A DNA stretch of 33,371 nucleotides from Anaerolineae bacterium (GCA_025062175.1 JANXAX010000002.1:1-33371), one strand, 5' to 3'; positions 15,784-32,333 are shown, counted from the first letter of the stretch. The notes: generated by a model not told the origin, from the letters alone. Made by a program: numbers and translations.

Positions 15784-15797
15784 CGTGCCCTATACCC

Positions 15798-17530: not shown

Positions 17531-17560
17531 ATCATACCATACGTGCCAAAGGCGAATCAA
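17531..17560 (-). promoter_or_regulatory. candidate promoter of the acyl-CoA carboxylase operon
   Basis: On the minus strand: TTGATT (17560-17555), 18 nt spacer, TATGAT (17536-17531), with a TGg extended -10. Confidence 0.45.
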
Positions 17561-17589
17561 ATGATGGAGAAGTATTGGAAAACTTGCTT

Positions 17590-17618
17590 TTGACAAACCC
17601 CAACCTTGACGCTAAAAT
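17590..17618 (+). promoter_or_regulatory. candidate promoter of the phosphofructokinase gene
   Basis: TTGACA (17590-17595), 17 nt spacer, TAAAAT (17613-17618). It implies a ~135-nt leader. Confidence 0.55.
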
Positions 17619-17758
17619 GTTGGTGATTTTATGTGCACCGCACCGAGGCGTTGCCCCTGCGCGAGGACTCTGCGCTTGCCAACCCATCACAGCCGACGTC
17701 TTGAGCTCAGGAATTATTGCAACCGATTTATGAAGTCAGTTGAGCAGGAGTCAGAAAG

Positions 17759-18916: not shown

Positions 18917-18945
18917 GTACACGTCCCGGATGGGACAGGTCTTCG

Positions 18946-18989
18946 GTGCCCCGTGCTCGTTCATCATAATAAAGAGCATGGGGCACTTT
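18946..18989 (+). terminator. putative intrinsic terminator after pfk
   Basis: GTGCCCCGTGCTC (18946-18958) pairs with GAGCATGGGGCAC (18974-18986), giving a 13 bp stem including one G-U pair and a 15-nt loop. It is followed by TTT. Confidence 0.5.
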
Positions 18990-19075
18990 CACGTTAAGGA
19001 GATCGGGACACGTTTTTGTGATACATAACCGGATGCGAGCACATTTTCCCCAGTGAAGGGTCAAGGAGGTCGGTC

Positions 19076-20056: not shown

Positions 20057-20094
20057 CGGGTGGGCAGCCGAGCTAGCCTGGTCCAGAACTATAG

Positions 20095-20140
20095 AAAGCT
20101 GCGCCTTCAAATCTGTCCTTATATAGGCGCAGCTTTTTCC
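20095..20140 (+). terminator. putative intrinsic terminator after the aldo/keto reductase gene
   Basis: AAAGCTGCGCC (20095-20105) and GGCGCAGCTTT (20126-20136) form an 11-bp perfect stem that runs into TTTTT. The 20-nt loop is large. Confidence 0.5.
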
Positions 20141-20308
20141 ATTATGAAAGGTGAATTTTCCCCGTTCACCCGCCCAGCTGACTACCGGTTTGCATTTCGG
20201 GAAAACATCTGGTAAAAAATGGTCTATCCCCATCGACAAAATTTTAAAGACCAGCATAGTTCTACTTGGGCTGAAGTGGTATTAGGTTCTGGTTAGGGAG
20301 AGTAAGTT

Positions 20309-22585
20309 ATGGGTAAGGCAAAGGTGGCACGACGAGACTATAGTCTGATCGGGAAGGATGCAGCACTGGCGGTTGAGAAGGGTTTAGCGAACGCTCCGTG
20401 GTATATCCCCCCTGTCCCCCGCGAAAAGATGCGCGAGCTGCTCGAGCGGCGCGATGGCCCAGCGATCCGCGATACCATTCTCTGGTTCTTCCTGCTCTTC
20501 GCCTTCGGACTGGCAGGCTATTGGCTCTGGGGCACTTACTGGGCCGCTATACCCTTTTTCATATACGGTGTGCTTTATGCCTCGGTCTCCGACTCGCGCT
20601 GGCATGAAACCAGTCACGGGACCGCTTTCAAGACCGACTGGCTGAACAACGTGCTGTATGAGATTGCTTCCTTCATGGTGCTGCGCGAGTCGGTGCCGTG
20701 GCGCTGGAGTCACACGCGGCATCATAGCGACACCATCATTGTCGGTCGCGACCCTGAGATCGCGGTGCCACGCCCGGCGAACTTGTTGGAGATCTTTTCG
20801 AAGTTCTTCAATGGGTTGGCCTGGATCAAGTATGTCCGAGGGGTCTTTTGGCACTGCCTCGGCCGGATGACCCCCGAAGAAAAGACCTATATTCCGGAAA
20901 CAGAATACCCTAAGGTGTTTCTCCGGGCACGAATATACGCTCTGATCTATCTGGGGGTTATTGCCCTGGCCGCCTATACTGGCAGCCTTCTGCCATTGAT
21001 GTACATCGGTCTACCTAATCTTTACGGTGCCTGGCTGATGGTCGTCTATGGCCTGACGCAACATGCTGGCCTGGCTGAAGACGTCCTGGACCATCGCCTG
21101 AACACGCGCACCTTCTATATGAATCCGGTGCACCGCTATCTCTACTGGAATATGGGCTATCACATCGAGCACCATATGTTCCCCTTGGTGCCATACCATG
21201 CATTGGACAAGCTGCATGAAGTGGTTAAGCCCTATATGCCCAAGCCCTATAAAGGGGTTATCGAGGTCTATCGCGAGCTCATCCCGGCACTGTGGCGTCA
21301 ATCCAAGGATCCTACCTATTACGTGAAACGGGAAGTGCCGGTTGTGGCCGAGACAGCGGAGACGCGCACAGCTATCCAGGTGTTGGTGGCCGAGATGGAA
21401 GCCACTCGCAGTGGCTGGGTCAAGGTGTGTCCGTGCCATCAACTACAAAACGAGGAGGTAATGCGTTTCGACTACCATAACAAGATCTATGCCATCTACC
21501 GAGCAGCCGATGGCAAGGTCTACGCCACCGATGGGGTCTGCACCCACGGCAACGCGTTGCTGACTGATGGATTTCTGCGTGGGTATCTCATTGAGTGCCC
21601 GAAGCACAATGGGCGCTTCGACATCCGTGACGGCTCACCCCAACGGCCGCCTGTTTCGATTCCGCTCAAGACTTATGAAGTGCGCGAAAGCGAGGGACAG
21701 GTGTGGCTCAACGTAGCAGTGATCCACGGCTCCGGCCTGGCAGAAGCAGCGCCGACCTATACGTTCCAGGTGGTCCGCAACGATAACGTCACCCCTGTGA
21801 TCAAGGAATTGATCCTCGAGGTGACGGACACCTCACCTGGCTTGACATACCAGCCGGGCGACTATCTGCAATTCGAGATACCGGCGTATGCAGAGCGCAC
21901 GTTGAGTGATGTGGAGGTTACACCGCCTTATGATAAAGTATGGGAGGAGCTCCATCTTTACGACCTCAAAGTAGCTAATCCGATCCCGTGTTATCGCAGC
22001 TACTCGTTTGCCAGCAATCCGGCTACGGAACGGCACTTGCGCTTCAATATCCGCTTGGCGACGCCGCCGCCTGGTCAGGATGTCTATGCTGGCGTCGGCT
22101 CCGCCTATCTCTTCGGCCTGAAGCCGGGGGACAAAGTCAGGGCGATAGGGCCGTTTGGCGCGTTTCACATCCGGCCGACCGATCGCGAGATGGTGTATTT
22201 AGGCGGGGGGTCTGGGATGGCGCCGTTGCGCTCCCATATTGCCTATCTCTTCGAGACCGCGAAGACCACGCGTCGGGTGAGCTATTGGTTCGGGGCGCGC
22301 ACGCGGCGTGACCTGTTCTACCAGGACTATTTTGCGCGCCTGGCCGAGCAGCATGCCAACTTCAGCTTCCATGTCGCTCTTTCCGAACCCCTGCCTGAAG
22401 ACGGATGGACCGGGCATACGGGTTTCATCCACGAGGTGTTGCAGCGCGAGTATCTCAACACACACCCCGACCCGACGCAGGTGGAATATTATCTCTGCGG
22501 CCCGCTACCGATGATCCGGGCAGCGGTCGCAATGCTCACCGAATTGGGGGTGAGTCGCGATCAGATCCTCAGCGACGAGTTCTAG
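20309..22585 (+). CDS. three-domain fusion: membrane fatty-acid-desaturase-family di-iron oxygenase + Rieske [2Fe-2S] domain + NqrF-like FAD/NAD(P)H oxidoreductase
   Basis: His boxes HETSH (20603-20617), HTRHH (20711-20725) and HIEHH (21161-21175), with TM segments between them. Rieske CTHG (from 21539) and CPKH (21596-21607). FNR-type RSYSFAS, GGGSGMAP and a C-terminus ALSEPLPEDGWTGHTGFIHEVL...YLCGPLPM...ILSDEF that closely parallels NqrF as I remember it. GGGAGAG RBS, single uninterrupted ORF of 758 aa. Confidence 0.85.
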   Translation: MGKAKVARRDYSLIGKDAALAVEKGLANAPWYIPPVPREKMRELLERRDGPAIRDTILWFFLLFAFGLAGYWLWGTYWAAIPFFIYGVLYASVSDSRWHETSHGTAFKTDWLNNVLYEIASFMVLRESVPWRWSHTRHHSDTIIVGRDPEIAVPRPANLLEIFSKFFNGLAWIKYVRGVFWHCLGRMTPEEKTYIPETEYPKVFLRARIYALIYLGVIALAAYTGSLLPLMYIGLPNLYGAWLMVVYGLTQHAGLAEDVLDHRLNTRTFYMNPVHRYLYWNMGYHIEHHMFPLVPYHALDKLHEVVKPYMPKPYKGVIEVYRELIPALWRQSKDPTYYVKREVPVVAETAETRTAIQVLVAEMEATRSGWVKVCPCHQLQNEEVMRFDYHNKIYAIYRAADGKVYATDGVCTHGNALLTDGFLRGYLIECPKHNGRFDIRDGSPQRPPVSIPLKTYEVRESEGQVWLNVAVIHGSGLAEAAPTYTFQVVRNDNVTPVIKELILEVTDTSPGLTYQPGDYLQFEIPAYAERTLSDVEVTPPYDKVWEELHLYDLKVANPIPCYRSYSFASNPATERHLRFNIRLATPPPGQDVYAGVGSAYLFGLKPGDKVRAIGPFGAFHIRPTDREMVYLGGGSGMAPLRSHIAYLFETAKTTRRVSYWFGARTRRDLFYQDYFARLAEQHANFSFHVALSEPLPEDGWTGHTGFIHEVLQREYLNTHPDPTQVEYYLCGPLPMIRAAVAMLTELGVSRDQILSDEF

Positions 22586-23532
22586 CTATTCAGGCGCAGG
22601 ATTTCGGCGGCGGTGCGCGCGTCGGTGATCAGCACATTGATGAACTTGCCGCGCAGCGCGCCCAGAATAGCCGATGCTTTGGCCAGGCCGCCGGCCACGC
22701 CAACCACCTTGGGTATCTGGGCCAGCATTTGCTGATTGGCCGCGATCAGCCGTCGGTTTAAGGAGATGTCAAGGACGCGTCCCTGCAGGTCGAACTGATA
22801 GCCCAGGACGTCGCCGACGGCCCCAGCGCGGGCGAGCTCGCGCAGGTCCGCGTCGGTGAGGAAGCCGGCGCGGTGTAGGCTGGACAATTCGGGATCGATC
22901 GTGCCGATACCGGTGATGGCAACTTCGACTTGCCGAATCAGCTCCATCGTGCTAAGGATGGCGGGTTCCTGGAGGAGGGCCAGTGCCGTTGCTTCGCTCT
23001 CGACCAACGCGGGCGCGTGCAGAAAGCGGATGGTGGCGCCCAGTTTTTGGGCTAGCAAGCGGGCACACTCCGGCCCGTCCACGGTCGAGTGGCCGCGCGC
23101 CACGGCGCCGAGCAGCTGGATCACCACGGCATCGCGCAGCGGAATGTTGGCCACATTGCGCGCCGTCTCATACACGGCGGTGCCCCAGCCGATGCCGATC
23201 TTGATCCCGTCGTGCAGCTGGCGCTGTAGGAAGCGCGCACATAGCTCGCCCAGATGCTGGATCAAAGTGGTATACTGGGCTGGAGCTTCGGCCAAGACCC
23301 ACGCATCTACCAAGCTGAAGGTCCTGACCAGCGTCGCGCCCAGCTCCGCGTCCACGTTGATGAGCTTATTGACCCGGATGACCACGATCCCTTCTTCACG
23401 AGCTTCCTGGAGCAGCCGCGATATGGTGGAACGCGACAGGCCAAGGCGACGAGCGATTTCCTCTTGGGTTCTGTTCTCTTCGTAGTACCACGCAGCGACT
23501 TGCTCGAGCAGCTCGTGACGGGTCTGGTACAT
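22582..23532 (-). CDS. SorC/DeoR-CggR family sugar-binding transcriptional regulator
   Basis: N-terminal HTH (AAWYYEENRTQEEIARRLGLSRSTISRLLQEAREEGIV) plus a SorC-type sugar-phosphate binding domain (GIGWGTAV, VGVAGG). Confidence 0.9.
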   Translation of the reverse strand: MYQTRHELLEQVAAWYYEENRTQEEIARRLGLSRSTISRLLQEAREEGIVVIRVNKLINVDAELGATLVRTFSLVDAWVLAEAPAQYTTLIQHLGELCARFLQRQLHDGIKIGIGWGTAVYETARNVANIPLRDAVVIQLLGAVARGHSTVDGPECARLLAQKLGATIRFLHAPALVESEATALALLQEPAILSTMELIRQVEVAITGIGTIDPELSSLHRAGFLTDADLRELARAGAVGDVLGYQFDLQGRVLDISLNRRLIAANQQMLAQIPKVVGVAGGLAKASAILGALRGKFINVLITDARTAAEILRLNS

Positions 23533-23603
23533 AGGCCGTGTGCTTTTGCTGATATTCCCCAGTCCCTTATCCGTCGCGGAAAAACCGACCTGTTCGCATT
23601 CCT

Positions 23604-24332
23604 CTACACCCGGAGCGCGGATTTCAGCCGCTGGGCATCTTCGAGAGTTTGACGCAGATCTGCCATGAAGCGTGCCCCGTGCGCCCCGTCCACCAGACGA
23701 TGATCACACGCGAGTGTGGCAATCATCGTCGGAGCGACAATGAGCTGATCATCGCGCACAACCGGGCGCTTCGCCACCCGTCCCACCGCTAGAATCGCCG
23801 CGTCGGGTGGACTGATCACAGCTTGAAAGGCATCGATGTCCAGCATCCCCATGTTAGAAAGAGTAAACGTGCGGCCGGTCAAGTCACCGGCTTGCAGGCG
23901 GCGTGCCCGTGCACCCGCCTCCAACTCGATGGCGCGATGGGCCAGCTCCAGCAGAGACATGCGCTCTGCATGATGGAGCACCGGGATGATCATCCCGTCT
24001 TCCAAGCCGACGACAAAACCGAGGTGTACGGAGGCGTACTCCTCAATCTCCTCCTCGATCAAGCGGGCGTTAAGCCGCGGGTGTTGCAACAACAAAGACG
24101 CCACGACTTTGAGGAGCAGGTGAGTGAGCGTCAGGCGCGGCTGGGGATGCATAGCTAGCAGCTCCTCCATCAACGTCTGAGCGGCGTGCATCTCGATCTC
24201 TTGGGTGAGGTAAAAATGGGGGATATCGCGCTTGCTGCGCACGACGCGCTCAATGATGGCACGACGCATCGCCGTGAGCGGCACGCGCCGCGCCACCACC
24301 GGTTGCGGAACGGATGTTTGTGCTGTGTTCAT
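23604..24332 (-). CDS. 2-oxoacid/acetoin dehydrogenase E2 catalytic (acyltransferase) domain protein, lacking lipoyl and subunit-binding domains
   Basis: The catalytic-core motif DHRLVDGAHGARF lies near the C-terminus. The protein begins directly at the catalytic-domain boundary (VPLTAMRRAIIERV). GGAAAGGA RBS lies 4 nt before the ATG. Confidence 0.9.
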   Translation of the reverse strand: MNTAQTSVPQPVVARRVPLTAMRRAIIERVVRSKRDIPHFYLTQEIEMHAAQTLMEELLAMHPQPRLTLTHLLLKVVASLLLQHPRLNARLIEEEIEEYASVHLGFVVGLEDGMIIPVLHHAERMSLLELAHRAIELEAGARARRLQAGDLTGRTFTLSNMGMLDIDAFQAVISPPDAAILAVGRVAKRPVVRDDQLIVAPTMIATLACDHRLVDGAHGARFMADLRQTLEDAQRLKSALRV

Positions 24333-24385
24333 CGGTCCTTTCCAGGCAGGTGGACGATCCTTCGGATCTCCCCCGGGCCTCTGAC

Positions 24386-24643
24386 CTATTCCGGCAGCGG
24401 CTCGTCGGGGTCGGCGATATAGGCCAAAACGTCACCCACCTTGGCGGTTTCGCCAGCTGGCACTTTGATGCGGCGCAAGATCCCGCTGCCGAGTGCCTCG
24501 ACCTGCAAAACCGCTTTGTCGGTTTCCACTTCAAAAAGCATCTCGCCGCGTTCGACGCGGTCGCCTTCCTGTTTCAACCATTGGAGTATCTTGTACGAAT
24601 CAGCTGTTTCAGTGAGAGGAGGCATCACTACAGAGGTGATCAT
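24386..24643 (-). CDS. stand-alone lipoyl-domain protein (lipoyl carrier of the E2)
   Basis: 85 aa with the lipoylation motif EVETDKAVLQVEA. GAGGAAAGG RBS. Confidence 0.85.
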   Translation of the reverse strand: MITSVVMPPLTETADSYKILQWLKQEGDRVERGEMLFEVETDKAVLQVEALGSGILRRIKVPAGETAKVGDVLAYIADPDEPLPE

Positions 24644-24700
24644 GGTCGCCTTTCCTCGCTTTTGTGCTCAAATTGGTTGCCGGGAAAAAACCATCCGCCA

Positions 24701-25708
24701 CTATGCCGAAGTGGACCGGACGGCCACCTCGGCGCCTATCATTTCTTTGACCACCTGGACCACTTGCGTCACGCCCGGAACGACCTGTTTCTCCAGTTGT
24801 GAATGTGCTGGCAGAGGCACGTGCAACCCGCCCAAGCGGCGCACCGGTGCTGCCAGGATGTCGAACAGCCTCTCTTGCAGGCTGGCCGCGATCTCTGCCC
24901 CGAACCCGCCGAACACACTCGCTTCGTGGATCACCACCGCCCGACGCGTCTTAGTCACGGAAGCGATCAGAGTATCCATATCCAGGGGCGCCAAAGTGCG
25001 CACATCCACCACCTCGGCGCTGATGCCAATCTGGCTGAGCTCCTGCGCTGCAGCCAGTGCGGTATGCACCATGTTGGAATAAGCGATCAGCGTGACATTG
25101 TTACCAGGTCGTTTGACGTCTGCCACGCCAATTGGAACCGTGTATTCGTCTTCAGGCACCTCTCCTTCTAAGGCGTACAGGCCTTTGTGCTCGATGAACA
25201 TCACCGGGTTGTCGTCGCGGATAGCGCTTTTGAGCAATCCCTTGGCATCATAAGGCGTGGCCGGCATCACCACTTTGAGGCCAGGCACGTGGGCAAACCA
25301 GGCTTCCAGGCTTTGGGAGTGTTGCGGCCCGGCGCCACGGCCGGTGCCCTGTTGGGTGCGGATGACCAGCGGCGCCTTCAGCTGGCCACCGAACATACCG
25401 TGGAGCTTGGCAGCCTGGTTGACGATCTGGTCCATAGCCAATGTGGCAAAGTCGATGTACATGATCTCGGCCACCGGACGCCCCCCCACGACGGCGGCGC
25501 CCAGTGCCGCACCGACGATGATCGCCTCGGACATCGGCGCATCGATGATGCGCTTCGGGCCAAACTCTTGCAGTAGACCTTGCGTGACTGCATAAGCGCC
25601 ACCATAACGCCCCACGTCCTCGCCGATCACGAACACGCGTGGGTCGCGTTGCATTTCTTCGCGCAATGCTTCTCGAAGTGCCTCGCGGTAACGAATCCTG
25701 CGCATCAT
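24701..25708 (-). CDS. alpha-ketoacid/acetoin dehydrogenase E1 component subunit beta
   Basis: Transketolase-like pyrimidine-binding and C-terminal domains (VFVIGEDVGRYGGAY, PMSEAIIVGAALGAA, NPVMFIEHK). Confidence 0.95.
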   Translation of the reverse strand: MMRRIRYREALREALREEMQRDPRVFVIGEDVGRYGGAYAVTQGLLQEFGPKRIIDAPMSEAIIVGAALGAAVVGGRPVAEIMYIDFATLAMDQIVNQAAKLHGMFGGQLKAPLVIRTQQGTGRGAGPQHSQSLEAWFAHVPGLKVVMPATPYDAKGLLKSAIRDDNPVMFIEHKGLYALEGEVPEDEYTVPIGVADVKRPGNNVTLIAYSNMVHTALAAAQELSQIGISAEVVDVRTLAPLDMDTLIASVTKTRRAVVIHEASVFGGFGAEIAASLQERLFDILAAPVRRLGGLHVPLPAHSQLEKQVVPGVTQVVQVVKEMIGAEVAVRSTSA

Positions 25709-25735
25709 GCTCTCCCCTTGCTTGACATAATCTCT

Positions 25736-26695
25736 TTACGCAAACACGTCTTCCAAGACGCTGTCCAAAGTGGCCGGCGGGCTCTCCTCGGCGAAGCGCA
25801 CCGCGTCGGCGATAACCTCTGCCACCTTTGCTTCGAGTGCATCCACGTCGGCCTGTGTCATAATCCCCTCCCGAAACAGGTGCTCCTGATAAAGGCGGAT
25901 TGGGTCGCGGGCGCGTTGTCTCGCCTCCTCTTCTTTGTCTCGGTACGGGCTTGGGTCACCGCGCGAGTGTCCCAGGAAGCGATAAGTTTGCGCGCCGATG
26001 AGTGTCGGACCTTCGCCCCGCCGAGCGCGCTCGATAGCCTGCAAAGCCACCTGGCGCACAGCTAGCACATCCTGACCATCCACTTCGATGCCGGGCATGC
26101 CATAGGCCTCGCCCTTGCGCGCGAACGAGTGTTCCGCCGTGGCATGCGTCCACGGCAGTGACATGGCATACTGGTTATTCTCACACACGAAAACGATCGG
26201 CAAGCGCCACAACGCAGCCATGTTGGCCGCTTCGTGGAAGATGCCCTCCGTCATCGCACCTTCTCCGAAGAAGGCGACAGTGACCCGGCCGTCGTTTTGC
26301 AGGCTCGACCATAACGCCGCACCCGTAGCGATGCCGATATGTCCGCCGACGATTCCGTTCGAGCCGAGATGGCCGAGCTGGACATCGACCAAGTGCATCG
26401 AGCCGCCACGGCCTTTGCAGTAACCTGTCTCTCGTCCCAACAGCTCGGCAATGATGCGGCGCAAATCGCCACCTCGGGCGATGATATGGCCATGCCCGCG
26501 GTGGGTGCTGGTGAGGTAGTCCTGCGGCTGCATTGCCGAGCAGACGCCGGTGGCCACCGCTTCCTGACCGATGCTCACGTGGCACATGCTGCTGGCCAGC
26601 TTTCCCTGGAGCAACAGCTCGAGTATCTTTTCTTCCGTGCGCCGGATCAGCACCATTGTGTAATACAAGTTGACCAACGTATCCCGATCTTCCAT
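25736..26695 (-). CDS. thiamine-diphosphate-dependent dehydrogenase E1 component subunit alpha (AcoA-like)
   Basis: TPP motif FFGEGAMTEG...NMA...VCENNQYA. THRGHGH and CKGRGGSMH motifs. At 319 aa it is short, like acetoin-type E1 alpha subunits. Confidence 0.95.
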   Translation of the reverse strand: MEDRDTLVNLYYTMVLIRRTEEKILELLLQGKLASSMCHVSIGQEAVATGVCSAMQPQDYLTSTHRGHGHIIARGGDLRRIIAELLGRETGYCKGRGGSMHLVDVQLGHLGSNGIVGGHIGIATGAALWSSLQNDGRVTVAFFGEGAMTEGIFHEAANMAALWRLPIVFVCENNQYAMSLPWTHATAEHSFARKGEAYGMPGIEVDGQDVLAVRQVALQAIERARRGEGPTLIGAQTYRFLGHSRGDPSPYRDKEEEARQRARDPIRLYQEHLFREGIMTQADVDALEAKVAEVIADAVRFAEESPPATLDSVLEDVFA

Positions 26696-26718
26696 AAGCC
26701 AGTCCTCTTCATTACTTG

Positions 26719-28278
26719 TTACCGATGAGCCTGCCGTGCGATGTGGCGAGTCATTTCGTGCATCAGATCGCGCATCTGAGGATAGGTGTTGATGTATTTA
26801 TCCACGAAGAACTGGTAGGCTTCGTGAGTAGCCGGATTCGGTATAATGCGCTCGGTCACGCGCACCATTGCCTTGGCGGCGGCTGCCAGGTTGGGATATG
26901 CGCCGCAGCCCACCGCTGCGCAGATGGCGGCGCCCAGCACCGCTGCGGACGCTCCCGCTTCGGTCAGGGAGATCGGCACGTTGCTCACATCGGCGTGGAT
27001 CTGCATCCACAGCTTGCTCTTGGTCGGTCCTCCCGACGCTACCAGCTCATGGGCGGTGTAGCCATATTGGCGCATCGTGCGCAAGATGTGCTCGGTGCCA
27101 TAGGCAATGCCCTCCATAATGGCGCGGAACACGTGCGCAGGGGTGTGGGACAGGGTGAATCCCCAGATCATCCCGCGTGCCTCCGGGTCGACATAGGGGG
27201 TGCGATTGCCCTGCCAATAATCCAGCACGATCAACCCATCCGAGCCAGGGGGCAATTGGGCGGCTTCCTCAGTGAGCAAGTCGTAGGCGCTGATGCCCAA
27301 GGCCTGCGCTTTTTGCACATAGCTGCCGGCGAAATTGTCGCGGAACCAGCGCACCACCGAGCCGGTTGAAATCTGGCCACCCTCTACCGTGTATTGGCCA
27401 GGGATCAGACAATCTGTGTAAGCACCAAAGATGCCCTTGCCATGAAATTGATGGGCGGATTGCCCCAAGAGCAGGTGCGAGGAACCCACGATAAAGGCCA
27501 TCTTACCCGGCTCGACCACGTCCAAACCGAGCATCGCGATATAGGCGTCGGCGCCACCTTGCGCCACCGGAATGCCAGGCTTGAGTCCGAGTGCGTCGGC
27601 CGCTTCGGGTCGCAAAGTGCCCACCACCTCGCCGAGATTGAGGATGCGCTGCGGGAATTTGGCCAGCAAATCCCCCAGTCCGATACCTTCGTAGAAATCC
27701 GTTGGGAAGCCCCCTGTGTTGCGATCATAATACCAGCGGATGCTGGTGTTGTTGATGCTGCCCACCCATTCGCCGGTCAAGCGGTGCATGCACCAATCCA
27801 CATACTCGCCCACGTAGCGCGCTTGTGCCCAAACCTCGGGTTGATTTTCCTTGACCCAGAGCGCCTTACATGGCATCCATTCCGCTGACACGTTGCCATA
27901 GCCGTTGTATTTGAGAGCCGCGTACCCGCTGGCGGCGATGCGGCGCGCCTGGTCGGCAGCGCGCACGTCCATCCAGATGATGGCCGGACGCAACGGCTGG
28001 AAACGTTCATCCATGAAGACCACAGTGCAGCTGGTGAAATCACCGCTGAGACCCGTGATCGCATGCGGATGCAATCCTGACTTCTCAAGCGCCTTTCGCA
28101 CAGCGCTGACGATCGCCGTCCACCACTCTTCGGGGTTCTGTTCTGCCCATCCTGGGTGTGGGTGATAGACCGGATAGGGCACTGCCTCCGAAGCGACCAT
28201 CTTCCCCTGGGGATCAAAGATGGCGGCACGCACGCTCTCCGTGCCGCAGTCGATGCCGAGAAAGTGCTGATCTGCCAC
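26719..28278 (-). CDS. FGGY-family carbohydrate kinase (ribulokinase / pentulose-kinase-like)
   Basis: FLGIDCGTESVRAAIFD, DYWQGNRTPYVDPEARG and ASGGPTKSKLWMQIHADV. GTG start is preceded by AAGGAGGA. Confidence 0.9.
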   Translation of the reverse strand: MADQHFLGIDCGTESVRAAIFDPQGKMVASEAVPYPVYHPHPGWAEQNPEEWWTAIVSAVRKALEKSGLHPHAITGLSGDFTSCTVVFMDERFQPLRPAIIWMDVRAADQARRIAASGYAALKYNGYGNVSAEWMPCKALWVKENQPEVWAQARYVGEYVDWCMHRLTGEWVGSINNTSIRWYYDRNTGGFPTDFYEGIGLGDLLAKFPQRILNLGEVVGTLRPEAADALGLKPGIPVAQGGADAYIAMLGLDVVEPGKMAFIVGSSHLLLGQSAHQFHGKGIFGAYTDCLIPGQYTVEGGQISTGSVVRWFRDNFAGSYVQKAQALGISAYDLLTEEAAQLPPGSDGLIVLDYWQGNRTPYVDPEARGMIWGFTLSHTPAHVFRAIMEGIAYGTEHILRTMRQYGYTAHELVASGGPTKSKLWMQIHADVSNVPISLTEAGASAAVLGAAICAAVGCGAYPNLAAAAKAMVRVTERIIPNPATHEAYQFFVDKYINTYPQMRDLMHEMTRHIARQAHR

Positions 28279-28329
28279 GTGATCCTCCTTGGCTGGTAGA
28301 ATCTGAAAATTCTTCGGAAGCGCACGCGC

Positions 28330-29322
28330 TTAGAAGAAACGGATTTCCTCGCGCCGCACGGCGAGCAAGACAGCAAAAATCAAAATGCCTCCGCGCACGA
28401 TATTTTGCAGATAGAAGGGTGCGCCCACCATGTTGAGGCCGTTGTTGATGATACCCAGCGTCAACACACCGACCAGGGTGCCAAGGATGTTAGCCTGGCC
28501 GCGCTTGATGGTGGTCATGCCCAAGAACACCGCCGCCAGCGCGTCCATTGTGTACGGATCAGCCCCTTGCGGTTGCGCCGAGCCGAGGTAAGAAGTGAGC
28601 ATCACACCGGCCAGGGCGGCGAAGAACCCACTGCACACCAGACCCAAGAAGCGGTAGCGCTCGGTATTGATCCCGCTGAGCTTGGCTGCTTTGGGATTGG
28701 CACCGGTGGCGATCACGTAACGCCCGGCGCGCGTCTTGTTGAGAAAGAGATATTGAACCAGCAACACCGCCAGGGCGAGGATGACAGCGAAGGGCACCCC
28801 ACCCACGAATCCCTGGCCGATGAATTTGAAGGTGGCTGGCATTTGTCCATAGATGGAGTCGCCCCCCGCATAGGCGAAGTTGACTCCCAAGGCAATGGAT
28901 GAGCCGCCGATGGTGGCGATCAACGAAGGCACACGAAACACGGTGACGATAAAGCCAAACAACGTTCCGAAGGCGGCTCCGGAGAGCAACGCGACCATGA
29001 GTGCCACTTCGAAGGTCTGTTCCTGGCGCACCATCAAGCCGGCCACCAGAATGCCGGCTAAGCTGGCAACCGTCCCAACCGAGAGGTCGAATTCACCCGC
29101 GGCGACACAGATGGTCAGACCACCTGCCACGACAGCCAACGTGGAAACTTGGCGTAGAATGTTGAGCAGATTGCGCCCACTGACAAACCGACCTTCTAGA
29201 ACCCAGAAAGCCACAAAGACGATCACCAGGGCTAAGACCGTGCCGTAGCGTGCGATGAAATCCTCCCAATCGATCGCAGGTAATCTCAGCTTTCCCACTG
29301 TCGGGGCTTGCTCCACCTTCAT
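28330..29322 (-). CDS. sugar ABC transporter permease (RbsC-like, BPD_transp_2)
   Basis: Polytopic protein with RbsC-like glycine-rich TM pattern. The ATG at 29322 follows AGGAGG, whereas the ORF-track ATG at 29349 has no RBS. Confidence 0.9.
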   Translation of the reverse strand: MKVEQAPTVGKLRLPAIDWEDFIARYGTVLALVIVFVAFWVLEGRFVSGRNLLNILRQVSTLAVVAGGLTICVAAGEFDLSVGTVASLAGILVAGLMVRQEQTFEVALMVALLSGAAFGTLFGFIVTVFRVPSLIATIGGSSIALGVNFAYAGGDSIYGQMPATFKFIGQGFVGGVPFAVILALAVLLVQYLFLNKTRAGRYVIATGANPKAAKLSGINTERYRFLGLVCSGFFAALAGVMLTSYLGSAQPQGADPYTMDALAAVFLGMTTIKRGQANILGTLVGVLTLGIINNGLNMVGAPFYLQNIVRGGILIFAVLLAVRREEIRFF

Positions 29323-29358
29323 CCCAATTTTTCCTCCTGCTACCTCCAAAAATTAAGA

Positions 29359-30882
29359 TCAAAGACGAGGCTCGGCGATGGCTGCTTCGGCGGCACCCAA
29401 CATATGTTGCAGGACGGTCTCCTGGGTAAAGTCTGGACGTCTGCCTGAGCAGACCACCCGGCCGGCGCGCATAATATAAATGCGATCGGCCAACACCATC
29501 AACTCTTCCAGGTCGGATGTCGCGACGACAACGCCAGCGCCCTGGGCGGCGAGACCACGGATGATATTCCACATCTCAGCACGCGCGCCTACGTCGATCC
29601 CTTCGGTCGGTTCATCGAGCAGGAAGACCTTGCCTTGCACGTCTTCGCTGACCGCCAGCCACTTGCCGAACACGACCTTCTGCTTGTTTCCACCGCTCAA
29701 GTTGCCCACGTTGGTGCGCAGGCTGGGGGTGACGATACCCAGCCGCTTGACCACGTTGCTGGCGGCGCGGCGCAGGCCTGATTCGGACACGATCCCGCCC
29801 GGGGAGCAATCGGGCAGACAGACGACCGTGAGATTTTCCAGCACGTCCAGGCGCATCATCAGCCCCTTTTCCATGCGTTTTTCGGGCACCAGGATAAGCC
29901 CGTTACGGATGGCTTGCTCAGGTGTTCGGATGCGCTTGGGTTCACCACGGACCAGGGTGGTGCCGCTGCGAACGTCCCGATAGCCCACCAGGCTCTCCAG
30001 CAATTCGGTACGTCCGGCGCCGACGACGCCGGCCAGGCCGACCACTTCGCCGGCATAAACCTTCAGGGACACATCATAAAACCCTTCACCGGATAGATTA
30101 CGCACCTCCAACAGGACGGGTCTCCCGGTGGCATCTACATAATCCGAGGTGGTCGCGGCGATCTCGTGTCCTACGATCAACCGCGGCACGTCTTCCGGCC
30201 GGTAGGCGCTGATCGGTCCGCTGCTGACCACCTTGCCGTCGCGCAAAATGGTGATGTGGTCTGCGATTTCGAACACCTCATCTAGATGATGGGAGACGAA
30301 GATGATCCCCACACCACGTTCCTTAAAGCGGCGCAGGGTGTCGAACAGATGCTCGGTTTCCGCAGCCGAAAGAGAGGCGGTGGGTTCGTCCAGGACGATC
30401 ACCTTAGGGGAAGTGCGCAGAGCACGGGCGATGTCCACCAGTTGTTGCTTGCCGGCACCGAGTTTTTCGACATCGGCGTCGATGTCCAAATCCCCGATGC
30501 CCAGATTTTCCAGGAGTTCACGCGCGCGCTGACGCAACAATTGGCTGTTGATGATCCCCAGCTGTGACGGCTCGATGCCCAACAGAATGTTCTCAGCGAC
30601 TGTCAAATGACGGATGAGTGTGCGTTCCTGGTGGACGACCACGATACCGTATTGGGTGGCATCGCGCGCGTGGCTCAGATGCACCAGCTGACCATCCAGG
30701 AAGATAGAACCGTGATCGGGTTTTTCCGCGCCAGCGATGACCTTGACCAGGGTCGATTTACCGGCGCCGTTCATCCCCACCAAAGCGTGGATTTGGGCGC
30801 GCTCCAGGGTGAAATCCACATGGTCCAGCGCCCGCACTCCGGGATACGTCTTGACGATGTCGCGCGCTTCGAGCAATGCCAT
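29359..30882 (-). CDS. sugar ABC transporter ATP-binding protein with duplicated ATPase domains (RbsA-like)
   Basis: Two nucleotide-binding domains: Walker A GMNGAGKST and GVVGAGRT, signature LSGGNKQK, Walker B VIVLDEPT and VFLLDEPT. Confidence 0.95.
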   Translation of the reverse strand: MALLEARDIVKTYPGVRALDHVDFTLERAQIHALVGMNGAGKSTLVKVIAGAEKPDHGSIFLDGQLVHLSHARDATQYGIVVVHQERTLIRHLTVAENILLGIEPSQLGIINSQLLRQRARELLENLGIGDLDIDADVEKLGAGKQQLVDIARALRTSPKVIVLDEPTASLSAAETEHLFDTLRRFKERGVGIIFVSHHLDEVFEIADHITILRDGKVVSSGPISAYRPEDVPRLIVGHEIAATTSDYVDATGRPVLLEVRNLSGEGFYDVSLKVYAGEVVGLAGVVGAGRTELLESLVGYRDVRSGTTLVRGEPKRIRTPEQAIRNGLILVPEKRMEKGLMMRLDVLENLTVVCLPDCSPGGIVSESGLRRAASNVVKRLGIVTPSLRTNVGNLSGGNKQKVVFGKWLAVSEDVQGKVFLLDEPTEGIDVGARAEMWNIIRGLAAQGAGVVVATSDLEELMVLADRIYIMRAGRVVCSGRRPDFTQETVLQHMLGAAEAAIAEPRL

Positions 30883-30921
30883 TTTGGGGTAAATCTCCCA
30901 AACGTGTTAAAGGGTATGAAA

Positions 30922-30955
30922 CGGTCGCCGCCAACGGGAAGTTGGCAGGCGACCG
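30922..30955 (-). other. intercistronic stem-loop between the SBP and ATPase genes
   Basis: CGGTCGCCGCCAAC (30922-30935), GGGAA loop, GTTGGCAGGCGACCG (30941-30955). This gives a 14-bp stem with one bulged A and no T-tract. Confidence 0.55.
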
Positions 30956-31010
30956 CTTGCGAATCAAGGACTGGACATCTCCGCCTGGGCCGTGAAGAGT
31001 GGATGCCGGT

Positions 31011-32105
31011 CTATTCTTTGACCATCGCCTGCTCGAAGAAGAGCTGGTAGAAGTCGACCGTCTCCCACGGCATCTTGCCTTCGGGCGGCATATTAACCCC
31101 TTTGACGATGAAAGGTGCCGGGAAATCCACCTGTGGCACTGGCACCACCTCTTTGGCCGGCCGCCCTTTGCCCACGATTTCGTCGACGAAGGAACCGGCG
31201 AGGGCACCCCACAGCTCGAAGGCCTGTGCCGGCGTGGCCACCAGCGGATAGTCCGGGTTGCGCATCTCTTCGACGGCCGGAGGATGGCCATCGGCGCCAA
31301 CCACGAAGGCATCCTTGACCGTCATACCCTGGCTGACCAGCGCTTGCGCGGCCGCTTGCGCGGGTTCATCCCACGGGCACCAGATGGCATCGATGTCCTC
31401 GCCATAGCGGTTGATCCAATCGTTCACGGTGTTGAGCGTGGTCTCGAAGAAACCTTCGTATTGGATGACCTGGTCGGCCAGCACCTTGATGTTCTCATTT
31501 TCCGAGAGGACGGCATCTCGCACCTTGCCACGCTTGCGTGTCCCGTGATGGAAGTTGGCGGTGATGGTGCAGATGTTGGCCTCGGTCTTACCCTCGCCCA
31601 GCAGGCGCTGCACCAGGTAGGAGGTCATATGGGAGCCCATCACATAGTTGTTGGAGGCGATGTCGCAGATCGCCGGCGGGTAGTAGCCCGAGTCGACCGA
31701 CAGCATCGGAATACCGGCCTTGGCAACAGCTTGCAAGGCACCCTGAGCAGCGGTCAACGTGCCGAAGGTGACGATGATAGCGTCCACTCCGCGTGAGACC
31801 GCATCTTCGATCGTAGCCGAGAGCTGCCCCGGATCCCCCTTGGCATCGGTCACGGTGACGTCCCAGGGGAGGCCGGAGGCCTTCAGCCAGTTCTCAAAAC
31901 CCGCCTTGACACGCTGATTGCTCTGCGCCGAGAGCTGCTGGCACAAATAGGCGATTTTGAGCTCTTTCTTCTGGCGCGGCACATCGGGTCGCACATGGGA
32001 GAAAAGGTCTTTGGCAAACGCTGCGGTTACCGAGTTAGAAAACGCCAATCCGGCAGCACCGAGTGCGCTGGCCATCAGAAACTCACGTCGTGTTACCTTT
32101 GACAT
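31011..32105 (-). CDS. sugar ABC transporter substrate-binding protein (RbsB-like, Peripla_BP_4) with TAT-like signal
   Basis: MSKVTRREFLMASALGAAGLAFS signal peptide and a type I periplasmic-binding fold pattern (VDAIIV, VVGADG). AAAGGGGGA RBS. Confidence 0.9.
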   Translation of the reverse strand: MSKVTRREFLMASALGAAGLAFSNSVTAAFAKDLFSHVRPDVPRQKKELKIAYLCQQLSAQSNQRVKAGFENWLKASGLPWDVTVTDAKGDPGQLSATIEDAVSRGVDAIIVTFGTLTAAQGALQAVAKAGIPMLSVDSGYYPPAICDIASNNYVMGSHMTSYLVQRLLGEGKTEANICTITANFHHGTRKRGKVRDAVLSENENIKVLADQVIQYEGFFETTLNTVNDWINRYGEDIDAIWCPWDEPAQAAAQALVSQGMTVKDAFVVGADGHPPAVEEMRNPDYPLVATPAQAFELWGALAGSFVDEIVGKGRPAKEVVPVPQVDFPAPFIVKGVNMPPEGKMPWETVDFYQLFFEQAMVKE

Positions 32106-32285
32106 AAAGCATGTCCCCCTTTCCCTTCCTCATTGAATTGACTTAGCCATTGCAGATTTGCCTTGTCATTTGCGGAAATGATGAAGACCGGCGCGCTGAC
32201 GGGACTACTGGGTAACATGGGCGTGCTCCGCTGCACATCACCCCCTTTCAGAAATGTCACCATCTGCCCTTACTCACTATGATCC

Positions 32286-32314
32286 AGTATAACACTCGCA
32301 TGCACATATGTCAA
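32286..32314 (-). promoter_or_regulatory. near-consensus sigma70-type promoter of the transporter/kinase/E1-E2 operon
   Basis: On the minus strand: TTGACA (32314-32309), 17 nt spacer, TATACT (32291-32286). It sits in an AT-rich patch about 180 nt upstream of the SBP start. Confidence 0.6.
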
Positions 32315-32333
32315 TCATTTGGACAAATGTGCA
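32301..32333. promoter_or_regulatory. imperfect inverted repeat overlapping the -35, candidate operator (SorC regulator?)
   Basis: TGCACATATGTC (32301-32312) and GACAAATGTGCA (32322-32333) match at 11 of 12 positions with a 9-nt spacer. Confidence 0.4.

Follow-up and report, generated by a model that had tools for sequence, protein, structure and literature searches.

What does a TPP/lipoyl cleavage complex of the acetoin dehydrogenase type do inside an operon for the uptake and phosphorylation of a sugar? The question is raised by a locus in a 33,371-nt stretch of DNA from an Anaerolineae bacterium (GCA_025062175.1 JANXAX010000002.1:1-33371), referred to below as the window. The reading that we favour, with a probability of roughly 0.4, is that the operon is a complete catabolic unit for a small sugar of the ketose type, in which the kinase product would be cleaved by E1 and for which a 1-deoxy-2-ketose is the leading candidate substrate.

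The locus comprises nine co-directional minus-strand ORFs at 22582-32105, from the SBP gene to the SorC regulator gene (Table 1). All nine were found at the places and in the order given by the original prediction, with Pfam in agreement, and the gaps, described there as small, measure 9-128 nt (from SBP to SorC: 128, 9, 51, 23, 27, 57, 53 and 71 nt). The 9-nt gap between ATPase and permease becomes 36 nt if the permease uses an ATG start as in L001, a relative with 96% identity from which this start was taken for comparison; the permease (BPD_transp_2, 154 bits) counts 339 aa from its TTG start, but the ATG at 29322, which gives 330 aa, is probably its true start, and its L001 counterpart is called as a 330-aa product. 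The near-consensus promoter that had been claimed is likewise present (TTGACA-17-TATACT), top-ranked of seven sites in the region, compared with 3.0 +/- 1.6 sites in shuffled sequence. Between it and the SBP start codon stretches a leader, about 170 nt long, that matched no Rfam family, and a sequence scan of the kinase/E1 alpha junction found no terminator-like site. The prediction that the nine genes form one operon-like unit is supported.

Table 1. Genes and regulatory sites of the predicted operon (positions in the window).
Feature	Position	Strand	Evidence and details
SBP	31011-32105	-	ORF + Pfam
ABC ATPase	29359-30882	-	ORF + Pfam
ABC permease	28330-29349	-	ORF + Pfam
FGGY kinase	26719-28278	-	ORF + Pfam
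E1 alpha	25736-26695	-	ORF + Pfam
E1 beta	24701-25708	-	ORF + Pfam
Lipoyl protein	24386-24643	-	ORF + Pfam
E2 catalytic core	23604-24332	-	ORF + Pfam
SorC regulator (final operon gene)	22582-23532	-	ORF + Pfam
Sigma-70-like promoter	32286..32314	-	11/12 positions matched, plus upstream TG; -35 at 32309-32314, extended -10 (TG-n-TATACT) at 32286-32291
Candidate SorC operator	32301..32333	.	Inverted repeat, arms 32301-32312 and 32322-32333

The importer is of the CUT2 sugar ABC type. Its 364-aa SBP (Peripla_BP_4, 102 bits) is only distantly RbsB-like (RbsB model 58 bits, cutoff 337), has ribose/polyol-type CUT2 SBPs as its best solved relatives (E about 1e-14 to 1e-17), and shares 64-72% identity with its counterparts in the related loci L003, L085 and L086. 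Two unrelated SBP types, varying by lineage, serve the related loci, at least four of which have a RhaS/LsrB-type SBP (LsrB model 90-112 bits). The 507-aa ATPase carries two nucleotide-binding domains (two ABC_tran matches) and scores 390-470 bits, below every cutoff, with AraG, XylG and RbsA-type models.

The 519-aa kinase belongs to the FGGY family (FGGY_N and FGGY_C), and the motifs quoted in the original prediction, GNRTPYVDPEARG in the kinase together with THRGHGH and CKGRGGSMH in E1 alpha, were all recovered in the ORF translations. It scores 331 with the ribulokinase model (cutoff 428), 298 with the XylB model (cutoff 380) and 135 bits with the fuculokinase model, and its best solved relative is the Bacillus halodurans ribulokinase 3QDK. 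In the 3QDK alignment W126, D274 and E329 are kept and K208 is replaced by R, a set which we take to be the ribulose-contacting residues of that enzyme. By these comparisons the enzyme is pentulokinase-like, much closer to 5-kinases (AraB, XylB, LsrK) than to 1-kinases. The kinases beside E1 alpha in related loci are its orthologues (51-75% identity).

The E1 alpha (319 aa; E1_dh, 284 bits) is TPP-dependent and acetoin-dehydrogenase-like, with a TPP motif GEG-X26-NN whose GEG variant is shared by 26 of 120 clade members. This clade, marked by S35, M37, C38, V40 and S41 within the motif ASSMCHVSIGQEA, is a monophyletic group of 129 sequences that includes none of 160 generic E1 alpha-E1 beta-E2 loci; identity to generic relatives is at most 52%. 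Because E1 alpha forms part of a separate clade and remains below the cutoff of the PDH equivalog (361.5 versus 393.85), the view that the E1/E2 genes are not those of a housekeeping PDH or BCKDH is supported. E1 beta (335 aa; Transket_pyr and Transketolase_C) reaches 409 bits with NF006667 and exceeds the cutoff of the PDH E1 beta subfamily. The lipoyl protein is a free-standing 85-aa polypeptide (Biotin_lipoyl, 61.5 bits) whose top NCBIfam match is the AcoC N-terminus, while the E2 core is a stand-alone protein of 242 aa (2-oxoacid_dh, 228 bits, residues 15-236) in which neither a lipoyl domain nor an E3/E1-binding domain was found (no PF02817 match). This split is not a frameshift artefact, since relatives encode lipoyl (81-87 aa) and E2-core (239-243 aa) proteins as separate genes. 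Cofactor and catalytic motifs are intact: the TPP motif, ETDKA for lipoylation and DHRLVDG in the E2 core.

The crucial test set by the original prediction was whether kinase and E1 stay linked across genomes. Thirteen neighbourhoods from Chloroflexota and Actinomycetota assemblies were readable (L001, L003, L004, L005, L085-L087, L168-L170, L179, L180 and the window). All retain E1 alpha and E1 beta, and in 12 of these 13 independent neighbourhoods, covering at least two phyla, an orthologous FGGY kinase lies directly upstream of E1 alpha, in several cases with overlapping stop and start codons. The linkage, as judged from these neighbourhoods, is not an accident of the window's genome. The module as originally claimed is conserved in part: its core of FGGY kinase, E1 alpha, E1 beta and free lipoyl protein holds, the lipoyl gene (81-87 aa) being present in all 12 related loci in which its position was readable, but the E2 core is confined to four of the 13 loci (the window, L001, L085 and L086) and missing from nine, in one of which the contig stops before the E2 position. 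An E3 gene was found in 0/13 related loci, versus 27/78 generic loci. No aldolase or isomerase, nor any further enzyme for C-C cleavage, is encoded in any locus, and E1 is therefore the sole candidate for processing the kinase product. Accessory genes vary among relatives and include polyol-dehydrogenase-type SDRs, an AKR, a tartronate-semialdehyde-reductase-like enzyme and DhaK/DhaL, which hints at polyol entry or an unphosphorylated aldehyde product. We found no published description of a sugar importer/kinase operon with a TPP/lipoyl cleavage module; the combination is conserved and uncharacterised.

The SorC regulator (316 aa) has a Sugar-bind domain (217 bits) and an N-terminal HTH, and scores 207 with the Bacillus DeoR model (cutoff 420) and 160 with the LsrR model (cutoff 486). 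The candidate operator overlaps the -35 box, each of its arms being a copy, with one mismatch, of the palindrome GCACA-N2-4-TGTGC; an extra half-site, TGCACAT, is located at 32232-32238. In 12 related loci this palindrome, exact or relaxed, stands no more than 450 nt ahead of the operon's first gene, which accounts for 12 of 24 matches in 2.33 Mb. Its enrichment ahead of kinase-E1 operons is strong, and the palindrome, to which SorC is predicted to bind, is likely the SorC operator.

The pathway that we infer, in its chemistry, its substrate and its reliance on housekeeping E2 and E3, is as follows. The ABC system would take up the sugar, and the kinase would phosphorylate its terminal hydroxyl. 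The resulting ketose phosphate would be the direct substrate of E1, whose TPP would attack the C2 carbonyl and break the C2-C3 ketol bond; an aldose phosphate would leave, and the two-carbon unit would be transferred oxidatively to the free lipoyl protein. The E2 core, or an assumed housekeeping E2 in relatives that have none, would move the acyl group to CoA, and an assumed housekeeping E3 would re-oxidise the lipoyl protein. SorC would repress at the promoter-overlapping palindromes until released by a phosphorylated intermediate. The likeliest route would lead from 1-deoxy-D-xylulose via DXP to acetyl-CoA and glyceraldehyde-3-phosphate; only a 1-deoxy substrate would complete the operon, because both products are then central metabolites.

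Indirect support for DXP, which the original prediction had suggested, comes from a second E1 alpha clade, whose 18 members lie directly downstream of DXR-II, an enzyme described previously (PMC3847144); for the copy in Agrobacterium, PDB 3UPL is a match (E = 4e-210). SorC is likewise encoded in these loci, together with CUT1 ABC and PfkB, Gut-type PTS or FGGY genes, and a Priestia plasmid carries an FGGY kinase 48% identical to that of the window beside DXR-II. The E1 alpha motif M..S (positions 37 and 41) occurs in 27 loci, all in the DXR-II-linked clade or that of the window, where generic relatives have [VILST]..Y, and the GCACA-N2-4-TGTGC palindrome recurs in DXR-II loci L084, L102 and L117, preceding E1 alpha in L084 and L117. 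The two M..S clades are not sisters in an NJ tree, E1 beta has no signature common to both, and neither DXR-II nor DXR is encoded in the window or the 13 related loci; DXP remains a putative substrate and its cleavage a putative reaction. Precedent for such chemistry comes from earlier work, which cites that pyruvate and acetoin dehydrogenases can form 1-deoxyketoses and that XylB, an FGGY kinase, phosphorylates 1-deoxy-D-xylulose, and which reports that DXP synthase can be replaced by PDH E1 mutants (PMC3424233).

The same architecture would also serve an ordinary ketose phosphate (xylulose-5-P, ribulose-5-P or a tetrulose phosphate) made after import of a pentitol, tetritol or ketose. Dihydroxyethyl-TPP, as in transketolase, would yield a glycolyl thioester on the lipoyl protein, then glycolyl-CoA plus glyceraldehyde-3-P, and the operon would in effect be an oxidative counterpart of phosphoketolase. 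The retained residues that we take to be ribulose-contacting in 3QDK, the ribose/polyol binders nearest to the SBP, and the polyol-dehydrogenase-type SDRs or Zn-ADHs of several relatives are consistent with this, as are Atribacterota polyol loci, in which E1 alpha-beta is fused and lipoyl and E2 genes are lacking. Among cultured organisms, the nearest kinase (52-58% identity) is encoded on a Rubrobacter plasmid, in a tetritol-like cluster with transketolase, DAK and RpiB and without E1, a setting that an ordinary ketose phosphate would explain no less well than DXP. We nevertheless consider such a substrate unlikely: the loci encode no evident fate for glycolyl-CoA, the pentose phosphate pathway already handles such intermediates, and the E1 alpha signature is specifically common with DXR-II-linked E1s, for which a methyl-ketone substrate is expected.

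It is more doubtful that the E1/lipoyl/E2 module bypasses the kinase product and, merely co-regulated, oxidises acetoin, pyruvate or an alpha-hydroxyaldehyde (lactaldehyde, glycolaldehyde or glyceraldehyde) to an acyl-CoA. Rodionov et al. (PMC8579813) propose the same for Athe_0702-0704, with L-lactaldehyde as candidate substrate, and both the E1 beta score and the aldehyde-handling AKR, DAK and beta-hydroxyacid dehydrogenase genes that recur near the loci would fit; against it, no locus enzyme, aldolase or other, could turn the kinase product into one of these metabolites, kinase and E1 alpha are translationally coupled in several loci, and E1 alpha stands apart from the PDH equivalog in score and clade.

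An alternative AI-2 route appears improbable. Here DPD would be imported and phosphorylated, and E1 would split the hydrated 2,3-diketone of phospho-DPD like a 2-oxoacid into acetyl-CoA and 3-phosphoglycerate, replacing LsrG/LsrF, a chemistry that we judge near that of normal 2-oxoacid dehydrogenases. The Lsr-like layout of the original prediction stands as gene logic (SorC, FGGY kinase, CUT2 ABC transporter), and the RhaS/LsrB-type SBPs of relatives and an L085/L086 SDR2 similar to diacetyl/acetoin reductases agree with an AI-2 route, but the likeness does not extend to the proteins: all Lsr equivalog models, among them LsrR (160/486), LsrK (218/528) and LsrA (396/586), score far below cutoff, and the window SBP is unmatched by the LsrB model and has no LsrB structure among its PDB matches. 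Highly improbable is a redox-neutral, phosphoketolase-like variant, purely mechanistic speculation and without known precedent among E1 enzymes, in which a substrate phosphorylated by the kinase at C1 would, after C2-C3 cleavage, lose phosphate from the TPP-bound fragment to give acetyl-TPP, whose acetyl group would pass via the reduced lipoyl protein to CoA, with no need for E3 and with an unphosphorylated aldehyde as product; the missing E3 genes, the L180 lipoyl gene followed by DhaK/DhaL and an aldehyde-reductase-like gene, and the AKR or DAK genes near L087 and L170 would suit it, but the kinase is far from 1-kinases, as its fuculokinase score indicates.

Cleavage of a 1-deoxyketose phosphate, the preferred reading, can be compared with several known systems. 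The acetoin dehydrogenase system (AcoA/AcoB/AcoC/AcoL; acetoin to acetaldehyde and acetyl-CoA) shares the heterotetramer-type E1 alpha/beta with STHRGHGH and GGSMH motifs and, with the predicted chemistry, ketol C-C cleavage rather than decarboxylation and lipoyl-dependent C2 transfer to CoA; several E1 alpha clade members are named acetoin:DCPIP oxidoreductase alpha by JGI. The window differs in its split E2 without a subunit-binding domain, its lack of an E3 gene, SorC and a sigma-70-like promoter in place of AcoR/sigma-54, its separate E1 alpha clade and the position of the module within a sugar uptake/kinase operon. Athe_0702-0704 of Caldicellulosiruptor bescii, an acetoin-dehydrogenase-like set in the rhamnose regulon described as a novel dehydrogenase without assigned function (PMC8579813), likewise lies inside a sugar locus, but has a full E2, E3 and E1, a DeoR-type regulator, a rhaA neighbour and no adjacent kinase.

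The lsr AI-2 operon (LsrACDB, LsrK, LsrR, LsrF, LsrG) has in common with the window a CUT2 ABC importer, an FGGY kinase and a SorC-family repressor and, with the proposed pathway, a 1-deoxy-pentulose-type kinase substrate and acetyl-CoA among the expected end products; in the window, LsrF/LsrG are replaced by the TPP/lipoyl module and every protein stays below the Lsr equivalog cutoffs. The uncharacterised DXR-II-linked loci of Rhizobiales, Acetobacteraceae, Priestia and freshwater Actinobacteria share the aco-like E1 alpha/beta, M..S signature, SorC and sugar uptake/phosphorylation genes. In them, unlike in the window and its clade, DXR-II directly precedes E1 alpha, the E2 is full-length, and Lpd and LipA are often encoded as well. 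The C2-C3 bond of 1-deoxy-xylulose(-5-P) is formed by TPP chemistry, from hydroxyethyl-TPP and glyceraldehyde(-3-P), in DXP synthase and in 1-deoxyketose-forming side reactions of PDH E1 and acetoin dehydrogenase; the proposed reaction would break this bond, with oxidative transfer to lipoate/CoA rendering the step irreversible, and, to our knowledge, has been demonstrated for no enzyme. Finally, in transketolase/phosphoketolase routes, of which D-apiose catabolism through apulose-4-phosphate transketolase is an example, a TPP enzyme that removes C1-C2 of a ketose phosphate is likewise supplied by a CUT2 SBP and a sugar kinase; there an aldose or phosphate accepts the C2 unit, whereas in the pathway proposed here a lipoyl protein and CoA would do so.

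The nine minus-strand ORFs of the operon lie at the positions originally predicted, and Pfam agrees with the identity proposed for every one of them. They are separated by small gaps of 9-128 nt, as had been stated, and most are preceded by purine-rich ribosome-binding sites; the near-consensus promoter proposed ahead of them is the top promoter-like site of the region. A sequence scan revealed no terminator-like site between the kinase and E1 alpha genes, and an Rfam search for a leader RNA element was without match.

Features of the window and of the genome, metagenome and plasmid loci (L handles) compared with it
Locus	Feature	Coordinates	Strand	Content
Window	SBP		-	CUT2 type, Peripla_BP_4
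Window	ABC ATPase		-	Tandem ABC domains (Pfam)
Window	Permease		-	BPD_transp_2 (Pfam)
Window	FGGY kinase		-	FGGY_N 160 bits, FGGY_C 139 bits (Pfam)
Window	E1 alpha	25736-26695	-	E1_dh 284 bits (Pfam)
Window	E1 beta		-	Transket_pyr 160 bits, Transketolase_C 132 bits (Pfam)
Window	Lipoyl protein, 85 aa		-	Biotin_lipoyl (Pfam)
Window	E2 catalytic domain, 242 aa		-	2-oxoacid_dh (Pfam)
Window	SorC-type regulator		-	Sugar-bind (PF04198) 217 bits, residues 61-313; HTH residues 15-50
Window	Promoter	32314..32286		TTGACA-17-TG-TATACT
Window	Inverted repeat	32301-32312, 32322-32333		Two arms
Window	Separate sugar locus	828-7353	+	LacI regulator, CUT1 SBP, two permeases, GH127 beta-L-arabinofuranosidase
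Window	Second FGGY kinase	10015-11601	-	Only 29% identical to the operon's kinase
Window	758-aa fusion	20309-22585	+	Membrane fatty-acid-desaturase, Rieske [2Fe-2S], FNR-like FAD/NAD-binding reductase
Window	RodZ-like	32440-33267	-	HTH_25, RodZ_C; Pro/Thr-rich linker PTPTPLPTLTPTPTHTPTP
Window, L001	Kinase-E1 neighbourhood			Nine-gene layout in common
L085, L086	Kinase-E1 neighbourhood			Nine genes as in the window, then two SDRs
L004, L170	Kinase-E1 neighbourhood			Divergent ABC transporter and DeoR regulator, then FGGY-E1 alpha-E1 beta-lipoyl
L005, L087, L169, L179	Kinase-E1 neighbourhood			FGGY-E1 alpha-E1 beta-lipoyl-SorC
L180	Kinase-E1 neighbourhood			ABC-FGGY-E1 alpha-E1 beta-lipoyl, then tartronate-semialdehyde-reductase-like gene, DhaK/DhaL
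L003	E1 neighbourhood			SDR between permease and E1 alpha; contig end follows
L168	E1 neighbourhood			SorC-E1 alpha-E1 beta-lipoyl
L087	Second cluster abutting the module	13264-20987
L169	Second cluster abutting the module	13352-21023
L005	Second cluster abutting the module	13168-20358
L084 (Aquiluna genome)	DXR-II beside aco-like E1/E2	9896-17760		Co-directional: palindrome, E1 alpha, E1 beta, E2, SorC, GutM, PTS IIC/IIBC/IIA, DXR-II
L171	DXR-II beside aco-like E1/E2	7598-9960
L172	DXR-II beside aco-like E1/E2	7541-9945
L173	DXR-II beside aco-like E1/E2	7603-9960
L174	DXR-II beside aco-like E1/E2	7510-9930
L178	DXR-II beside aco-like E1/E2	7361-10581
Priestia plasmid	DXR-II-linked locus			E1 beta-E2-Lpd-SorC-MFS-SorC-DXR-II-FGGY
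L181 (Listeria innocua plasmid)	DXR-II locus	6790-11604		SorC, DXR-II, GutM, PTS Gut IIC/IIB/IIA; no E1/E2
L009 (Atrimonadaceae chromosome); likewise L008, L010, L050	Atribacterota polyol locus	5822-20019 (L009)		SorC, PfkB, mannitol-DH-like, Zn-ADH, 673-aa fused E1 alpha-beta, two xylose-isomerase-like TIM barrels, MFS, two FGGY, Zn-ADH, SDR
L176 (Rubrobacter radiotolerans plasmid 2)	Cluster with closest cultured-organism kinase	5223-21554		Transketolase, three FGGY, DAK-family kinase, RpiB, Zn-ADHs, HAD phosphatases, glycerol-1-phosphate-dehydrogenase-like gene

The window's other genes, which also include MoeA, acyl-CoA carboxylase subunits, a phosphofructokinase and an AKR, are not obviously linked to the operon. 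The desaturase-Rieske-reductase gene is convergent with the SorC gene, with a 4-nt overlap at the SorC stop codon, and also neighbours the operon in L001. The RodZ-like protein would fit a Chloroflexota-like source for the window, and the nearest E1 alpha homologues, by their names, likewise point to Chloroflexota/Anaerolineae.

No operon protein reaches an equivalog cutoff of the curated models. E1 alpha falls below the cutoff of the PDH model (361.5 bits, cutoff 393.85; NCBIfam TIGR03182/NF006667 test) and E1 beta passes a broad subfamily model only (408.8 bits, cutoff 321), while the closest models are ribulokinase (331 bits, cutoff 428) and xylulokinase (298, cutoff 380) for the kinase and Bacillus DeoR (207 bits, cutoff 420) for the SorC regulator; the SBP is remotely RbsB-like (58 bits, cutoff 337). 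Judged by its motifs, the catalytic equipment is intact. The TPP motif of E1 alpha is GEG-X26-NN (consensus GDG-X(24-27)-NN), with Glu at residue 145 replacing the Mg-binding Asp of GDG, and GEG is also present in 26 of 120 clade members; the lipoyl protein contains a lipoylatable lysine (VETDKAV), and the E2 core holds the catalytic motif CDHRLVDG (DHRxxDG type). Alignment of the kinase with the Bacillus halodurans ribulokinase 3QDK shows that W126, D274 and E329 are kept and that K208 is replaced by Arg, residues that we take to be the ribulose contacts; the catalytic Asp of the kinase is conserved and aligns with D274.

A protein search returned about 8000 E1 alpha relatives, the best 120 of which are 57-96% identical and belong mostly to Anaerolineae/Chloroflexota and Actinomycetes metagenome-assembled genomes. 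In a neighbour-joining tree built from 291 E1 alpha sequences, one clade of 129 sequences unites the window with 118 of these 120 best matches and every kinase-linked locus; it includes none of the 160 generic loci (44-52% identical; gene order E1 alpha, E1 beta, fused E2, with Lpd in some). Contig scans of genomes and metagenomes yielded, among the matches listed, mostly distant relatives (44-52% identity), which were used as outgroup, and added nothing to the close clade. E1 relatives on plasmids of cultured bacteria were all less than 60% identical, and no plasmid-borne member of the window's E1 clade was found among them.

Thirteen readable neighbourhoods were obtained from the window's clade or its immediate sister (Table). 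The kinases of the related loci share 51-75% mutual identity and are thus orthologous, and in L087, L169 and L179 the stop codon of the kinase gene abuts or overlaps the start codon of E1 alpha. A housekeeping PDH whose linkage to the kinase is unique to this genome, which would have spoken against the original prediction, is not what was found, since the E1 forms a separate clade and the linkage is kept in relatives. The SBPs fall into two unrelated types, the window's lineage having an RbsB-like one and most others a RhaS/LsrB-like one, and the accessory genes differ by locus (GolD/DthD-like and acetoin-reductase-like SDRs, AKR, beta-hydroxyacid dehydrogenase, DhaK/DhaL); no SDR gene was found within the window. 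The AKR was ruled out as a conserved pathway member, those of the window, L087 and L170 being only 30-34% identical to one another. The second cluster abutting the module in three actinobacterial relatives encodes an XylB-like FGGY kinase, DeoR, an M42 peptidase-like protein (SgcX-type), a BtpA/SgcQ-family protein and a RhaS/LsrB-like ABC transporter, and resembles the uncharacterised sgc genes of E. coli.

Every lipoyl domain in the window's clade stands alone as a protein of 81-87 aa, and an E2 core, present in four loci only, has neither a lipoyl nor a subunit-binding domain. The lipoyl domain and core of the window are separate genes in different reading frames, E3_binding (PF02817) had no match in either, and a frameshift or pseudogene origin of the split is ruled out because it is kept in relatives. 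No E3 was detected by tblastn with an Lpd query in the window and ten related loci, a search confined to the loci themselves, nor was an E3-type gene present in the gene calls of L179 and L180; in the comparison set, 27 of 78 generic loci contain one. The free lipoyl protein, the rare E2 core and the missing E3 together point to a conserved unit comprised of the kinase, E1 and E1's own lipoyl substrate. A cognate lipoyl domain is recognised specifically by its E1, E2 cores and E3 being more permissive. The E1 with its matching free lipoyl protein would work as a plug-in to the E2 and E3 that the cell already has: the acylated lipoyl protein would be discharged by whatever E2 core is present and then re-oxidised by the housekeeping E3. 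If true, the design would be minimal and modular: the E1 and the free lipoyl protein would be dedicated, and the E2 and E3 that they supply would be shared.

The inverted repeat overlapping the -35 box of the operon consists of two arms, each a copy of GCACA-N2-4-TGTGC with one mismatch. The exact palindrome is located directly upstream of the first gene in five related loci (L001, L003, L005, L087 and L169), against a background rate of 6 hits in 1.96 Mb, and of the 24 relaxed matches in 2.33 Mb, 12 are located within the 450 nt that precede an SBP, FGGY, E1 alpha or SorC gene of loci of this kind. The palindrome is likely the operator to which SorC would bind. In its exact or relaxed form it also precedes E1 alpha in L084, L102 and L117, which belong to a second group of E1 loci, linked to the alternative DXP reductoisomerase DXR-II (DRL).

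The E1 alpha sequences of this second group form an 18-member clade. In Agrobacterium tumefaciens, Rhizobium sophoriradicis, Pseudoroseomonas and Nitratireductor, the gene directly before E1 alpha encodes a 441-aa protein annotated as an NAD(P)H-dependent oxidoreductase. These operons have either a CUT1 ABC transporter with a PfkB kinase or a glucitol-type PTS; they also encode a SorC regulator, frequently along with Lpd and LipA. The Agrobacterium oxidoreductase matches PDB 3UPL/3UPY (E = 4e-210), which we take to be the apo and fosmidomycin-bound structures of Brucella abortus DRL/DXR-II. In agreement with this identity, the chain numbering reproduces G121, T229, H250 and V351, the residues diagnostic of DXR-II (PMC3847144). 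A DXR-II homologue adjoins E1 alpha in at least 13 independent genome or metagenome loci, and in all six plasmid accessions found by both searches fewer than 200 nt separate E1 alpha from DXR-II. Cultured carriers of related loci are S. fredii NGR234, S. meliloti Rm41, Agrobacterium CFBP7129, Priestia aryabhattai XT37 and Listeria, and the FGGY kinase of the Priestia plasmid is 48% identical to that of the window. On rhizobial plasmids and in Acetobacteraceae, Priestia and freshwater Actinobacteria, DXR-II adjoins E1/E2, a sugar PTS or ABC-plus-kinase set, and SorC; in Listeria it lies inside a polyol PTS operon despite complete MEP and mevalonate pathways.

The two E1 clades also share an E1 alpha motif, which reads HGTM-HLSIGQEA in the DXR-II-linked clade and ASSMCHVSIGQEA in the window, with M37, S41 and Q44 in common; all 27 loci that have the M37/S41 signature belong to one or other of these clades, and the motif of generic relatives is PGF[VI]-HLYIGEEA. 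M37 aligns with F61 of human PDHA1, presumably an active-site residue; besides M37 and S41, the clade residues of E1 alpha include H109, H119 and W182. No E1 beta signature common to the two clades was found. The motif signature, the palindrome and the DXR-II adjacency together make the window's E1 and regulator resemble, in apparent function, a system in which the neighbouring enzyme interconverts MEP and DXP. DXR-II was absent from the window and ten related loci when searched for, and no DXR-II-type gene stands beside E1 alpha in the gene calls of L179 and L180; if the pathways are related, the window's clade would consequently need import of the 1-deoxyketose itself, or a housekeeping DXR.

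That the E1 cleaves the kinase's ketose phosphate is our main reading, with a probability of about two in three. A 1-deoxyketose such as DXP, as the specific version of this cleavage, is put forward only tentatively, and the assignment of the whole operon as a "1-deoxyketose-phosphate (DXP) dehydrogenase", a TPP/lipoyl system performing the oxidative reverse of DXP synthase, is rather doubtful. DXP is a methyl ketol, as acetoin is; it would be cut at C2-C3, with oxidative transfer to lipoate, to give acetyl-CoA and glyceraldehyde-3-P, and only with such a DXP-like methyl ketol substrate would the operon be self-sufficient in enzymes. E. coli that has lost DXP synthase is rescued by mutations in the gene for PDH E1 (PMC3424233); that paper also cites work in which pyruvate and acetoin dehydrogenases made 1-deoxyketoses and the FGGY kinase XylB phosphorylated 1-deoxy-D-xylulose.

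The variable accessory genes, the two SBP types, the absence of DXR-II, and the Rubrobacter and Atribacterota loci are the reasons for which rival readings are kept. An ordinary ketose phosphate may be the substrate, with glycolyl-CoA as product. In favour of this, the closest cultured-organism kinase (52-58% identity), on the Rubrobacter plasmid, belongs to a tetritol-like cluster that includes a transketolase but lacks an E1 and may represent a tetritol or other unusual polyol pathway, and the fused E1 alpha-beta of the Atribacterota polyol loci, with no lipoyl or E2 gene, may act transketolase-like without a lipoyl partner.

The DXR-II-E1/E2 neighbourhoods themselves suggest, from gene context, a so far undescribed pathway for the breakdown of 2-C-methyl-D-erythritol or DXP. 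If the DXP dehydrogenase reading is true, this would be the first catabolic route for the MEP-pathway sugars 1-deoxy-D-xylulose and 2-C-methyl-D-erythritol and, together with the DXR-II-linked loci, would make the native role of DXR-II/DRL catabolic, from MEP to DXP. Such a role would explain the puzzling distribution of DXR-II, which is also found in bacteria with DXR-I, in mevalonate-only bacteria and in bacteria without an isoprenoid pathway (PMC3847144). With DXP as substrate, MEP-pathway intermediates that plants and microbes release would find a sink in this route, and the five named carriers of related loci, from S. fredii NGR234 to Listeria, would be model organisms for it. The searchable literature, which leaves out most subscription journals, yielded no account of a kinase-linked E1/lipoyl module, and DXP or methylerythritol catabolism and the DXR-II-E1 adjacency are likewise undescribed there.

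Compared with known systems, the operon is similar in logic to the lsr operon, and phospho-AI-2 may be its substrate, cleaved to acetyl-CoA and 3-phosphoglycerate. However, the window's proteins score below the cutoffs of the LsrA (396 bits, cutoff 586), LsrC (105, cutoff 388), LsrD (110, cutoff 500), LsrK (218, cutoff 528) and LsrR (160, cutoff 486) models, and its SBP has no match at all to the LsrB model. Two points of the original prediction hold here: the kinase is ribulokinase/xylulokinase-like rather than LsrK-like, and the operon contains no additional ORF to encode LsrF or LsrG.

The predicted chemistry is also that of acetoin dehydrogenase, and the complex may act as an aldehyde or acetoin dehydrogenase, the kind of function suggested for Caldicellulosiruptor Athe_0702-4 (PMC8579813). 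The STHRGHGH motif of E1 alpha is common to more than 600 relatives among the matches listed, and some clade members are named AcoA-like by JGI; identity to generic aco/pdh-like loci is 44-52%. Unlike acetoin dehydrogenase (AcoABCL), which is under AcoR/sigma-54 control, the window combines SorC with a sigma-70-like promoter, and in contrast to 2-oxoacid and acetoin complexes, in which the lipoyl, subunit-binding and core domains of E2 form one chain, its E2 is split and its locus has no E3. A redox-neutral elimination mechanism may be mentioned last. By gene content and control, the operon fits neither the acetoin dehydrogenase nor the Lsr systems. E1/E2 complexes are textbook 2-oxoacid enzymes, acetoin being the exception; from sequence comparison, we rate the window's system as a putative E1/lipoyl ketol-cleavage system, minimal and modular in build, that phosphosugar catabolism has recruited, and, if this is true, a conserved and separately evolving E1 branch tied to sugar import and phosphorylation would add the oxidative ketol cleavage of sugar chains straight to acyl-CoA.
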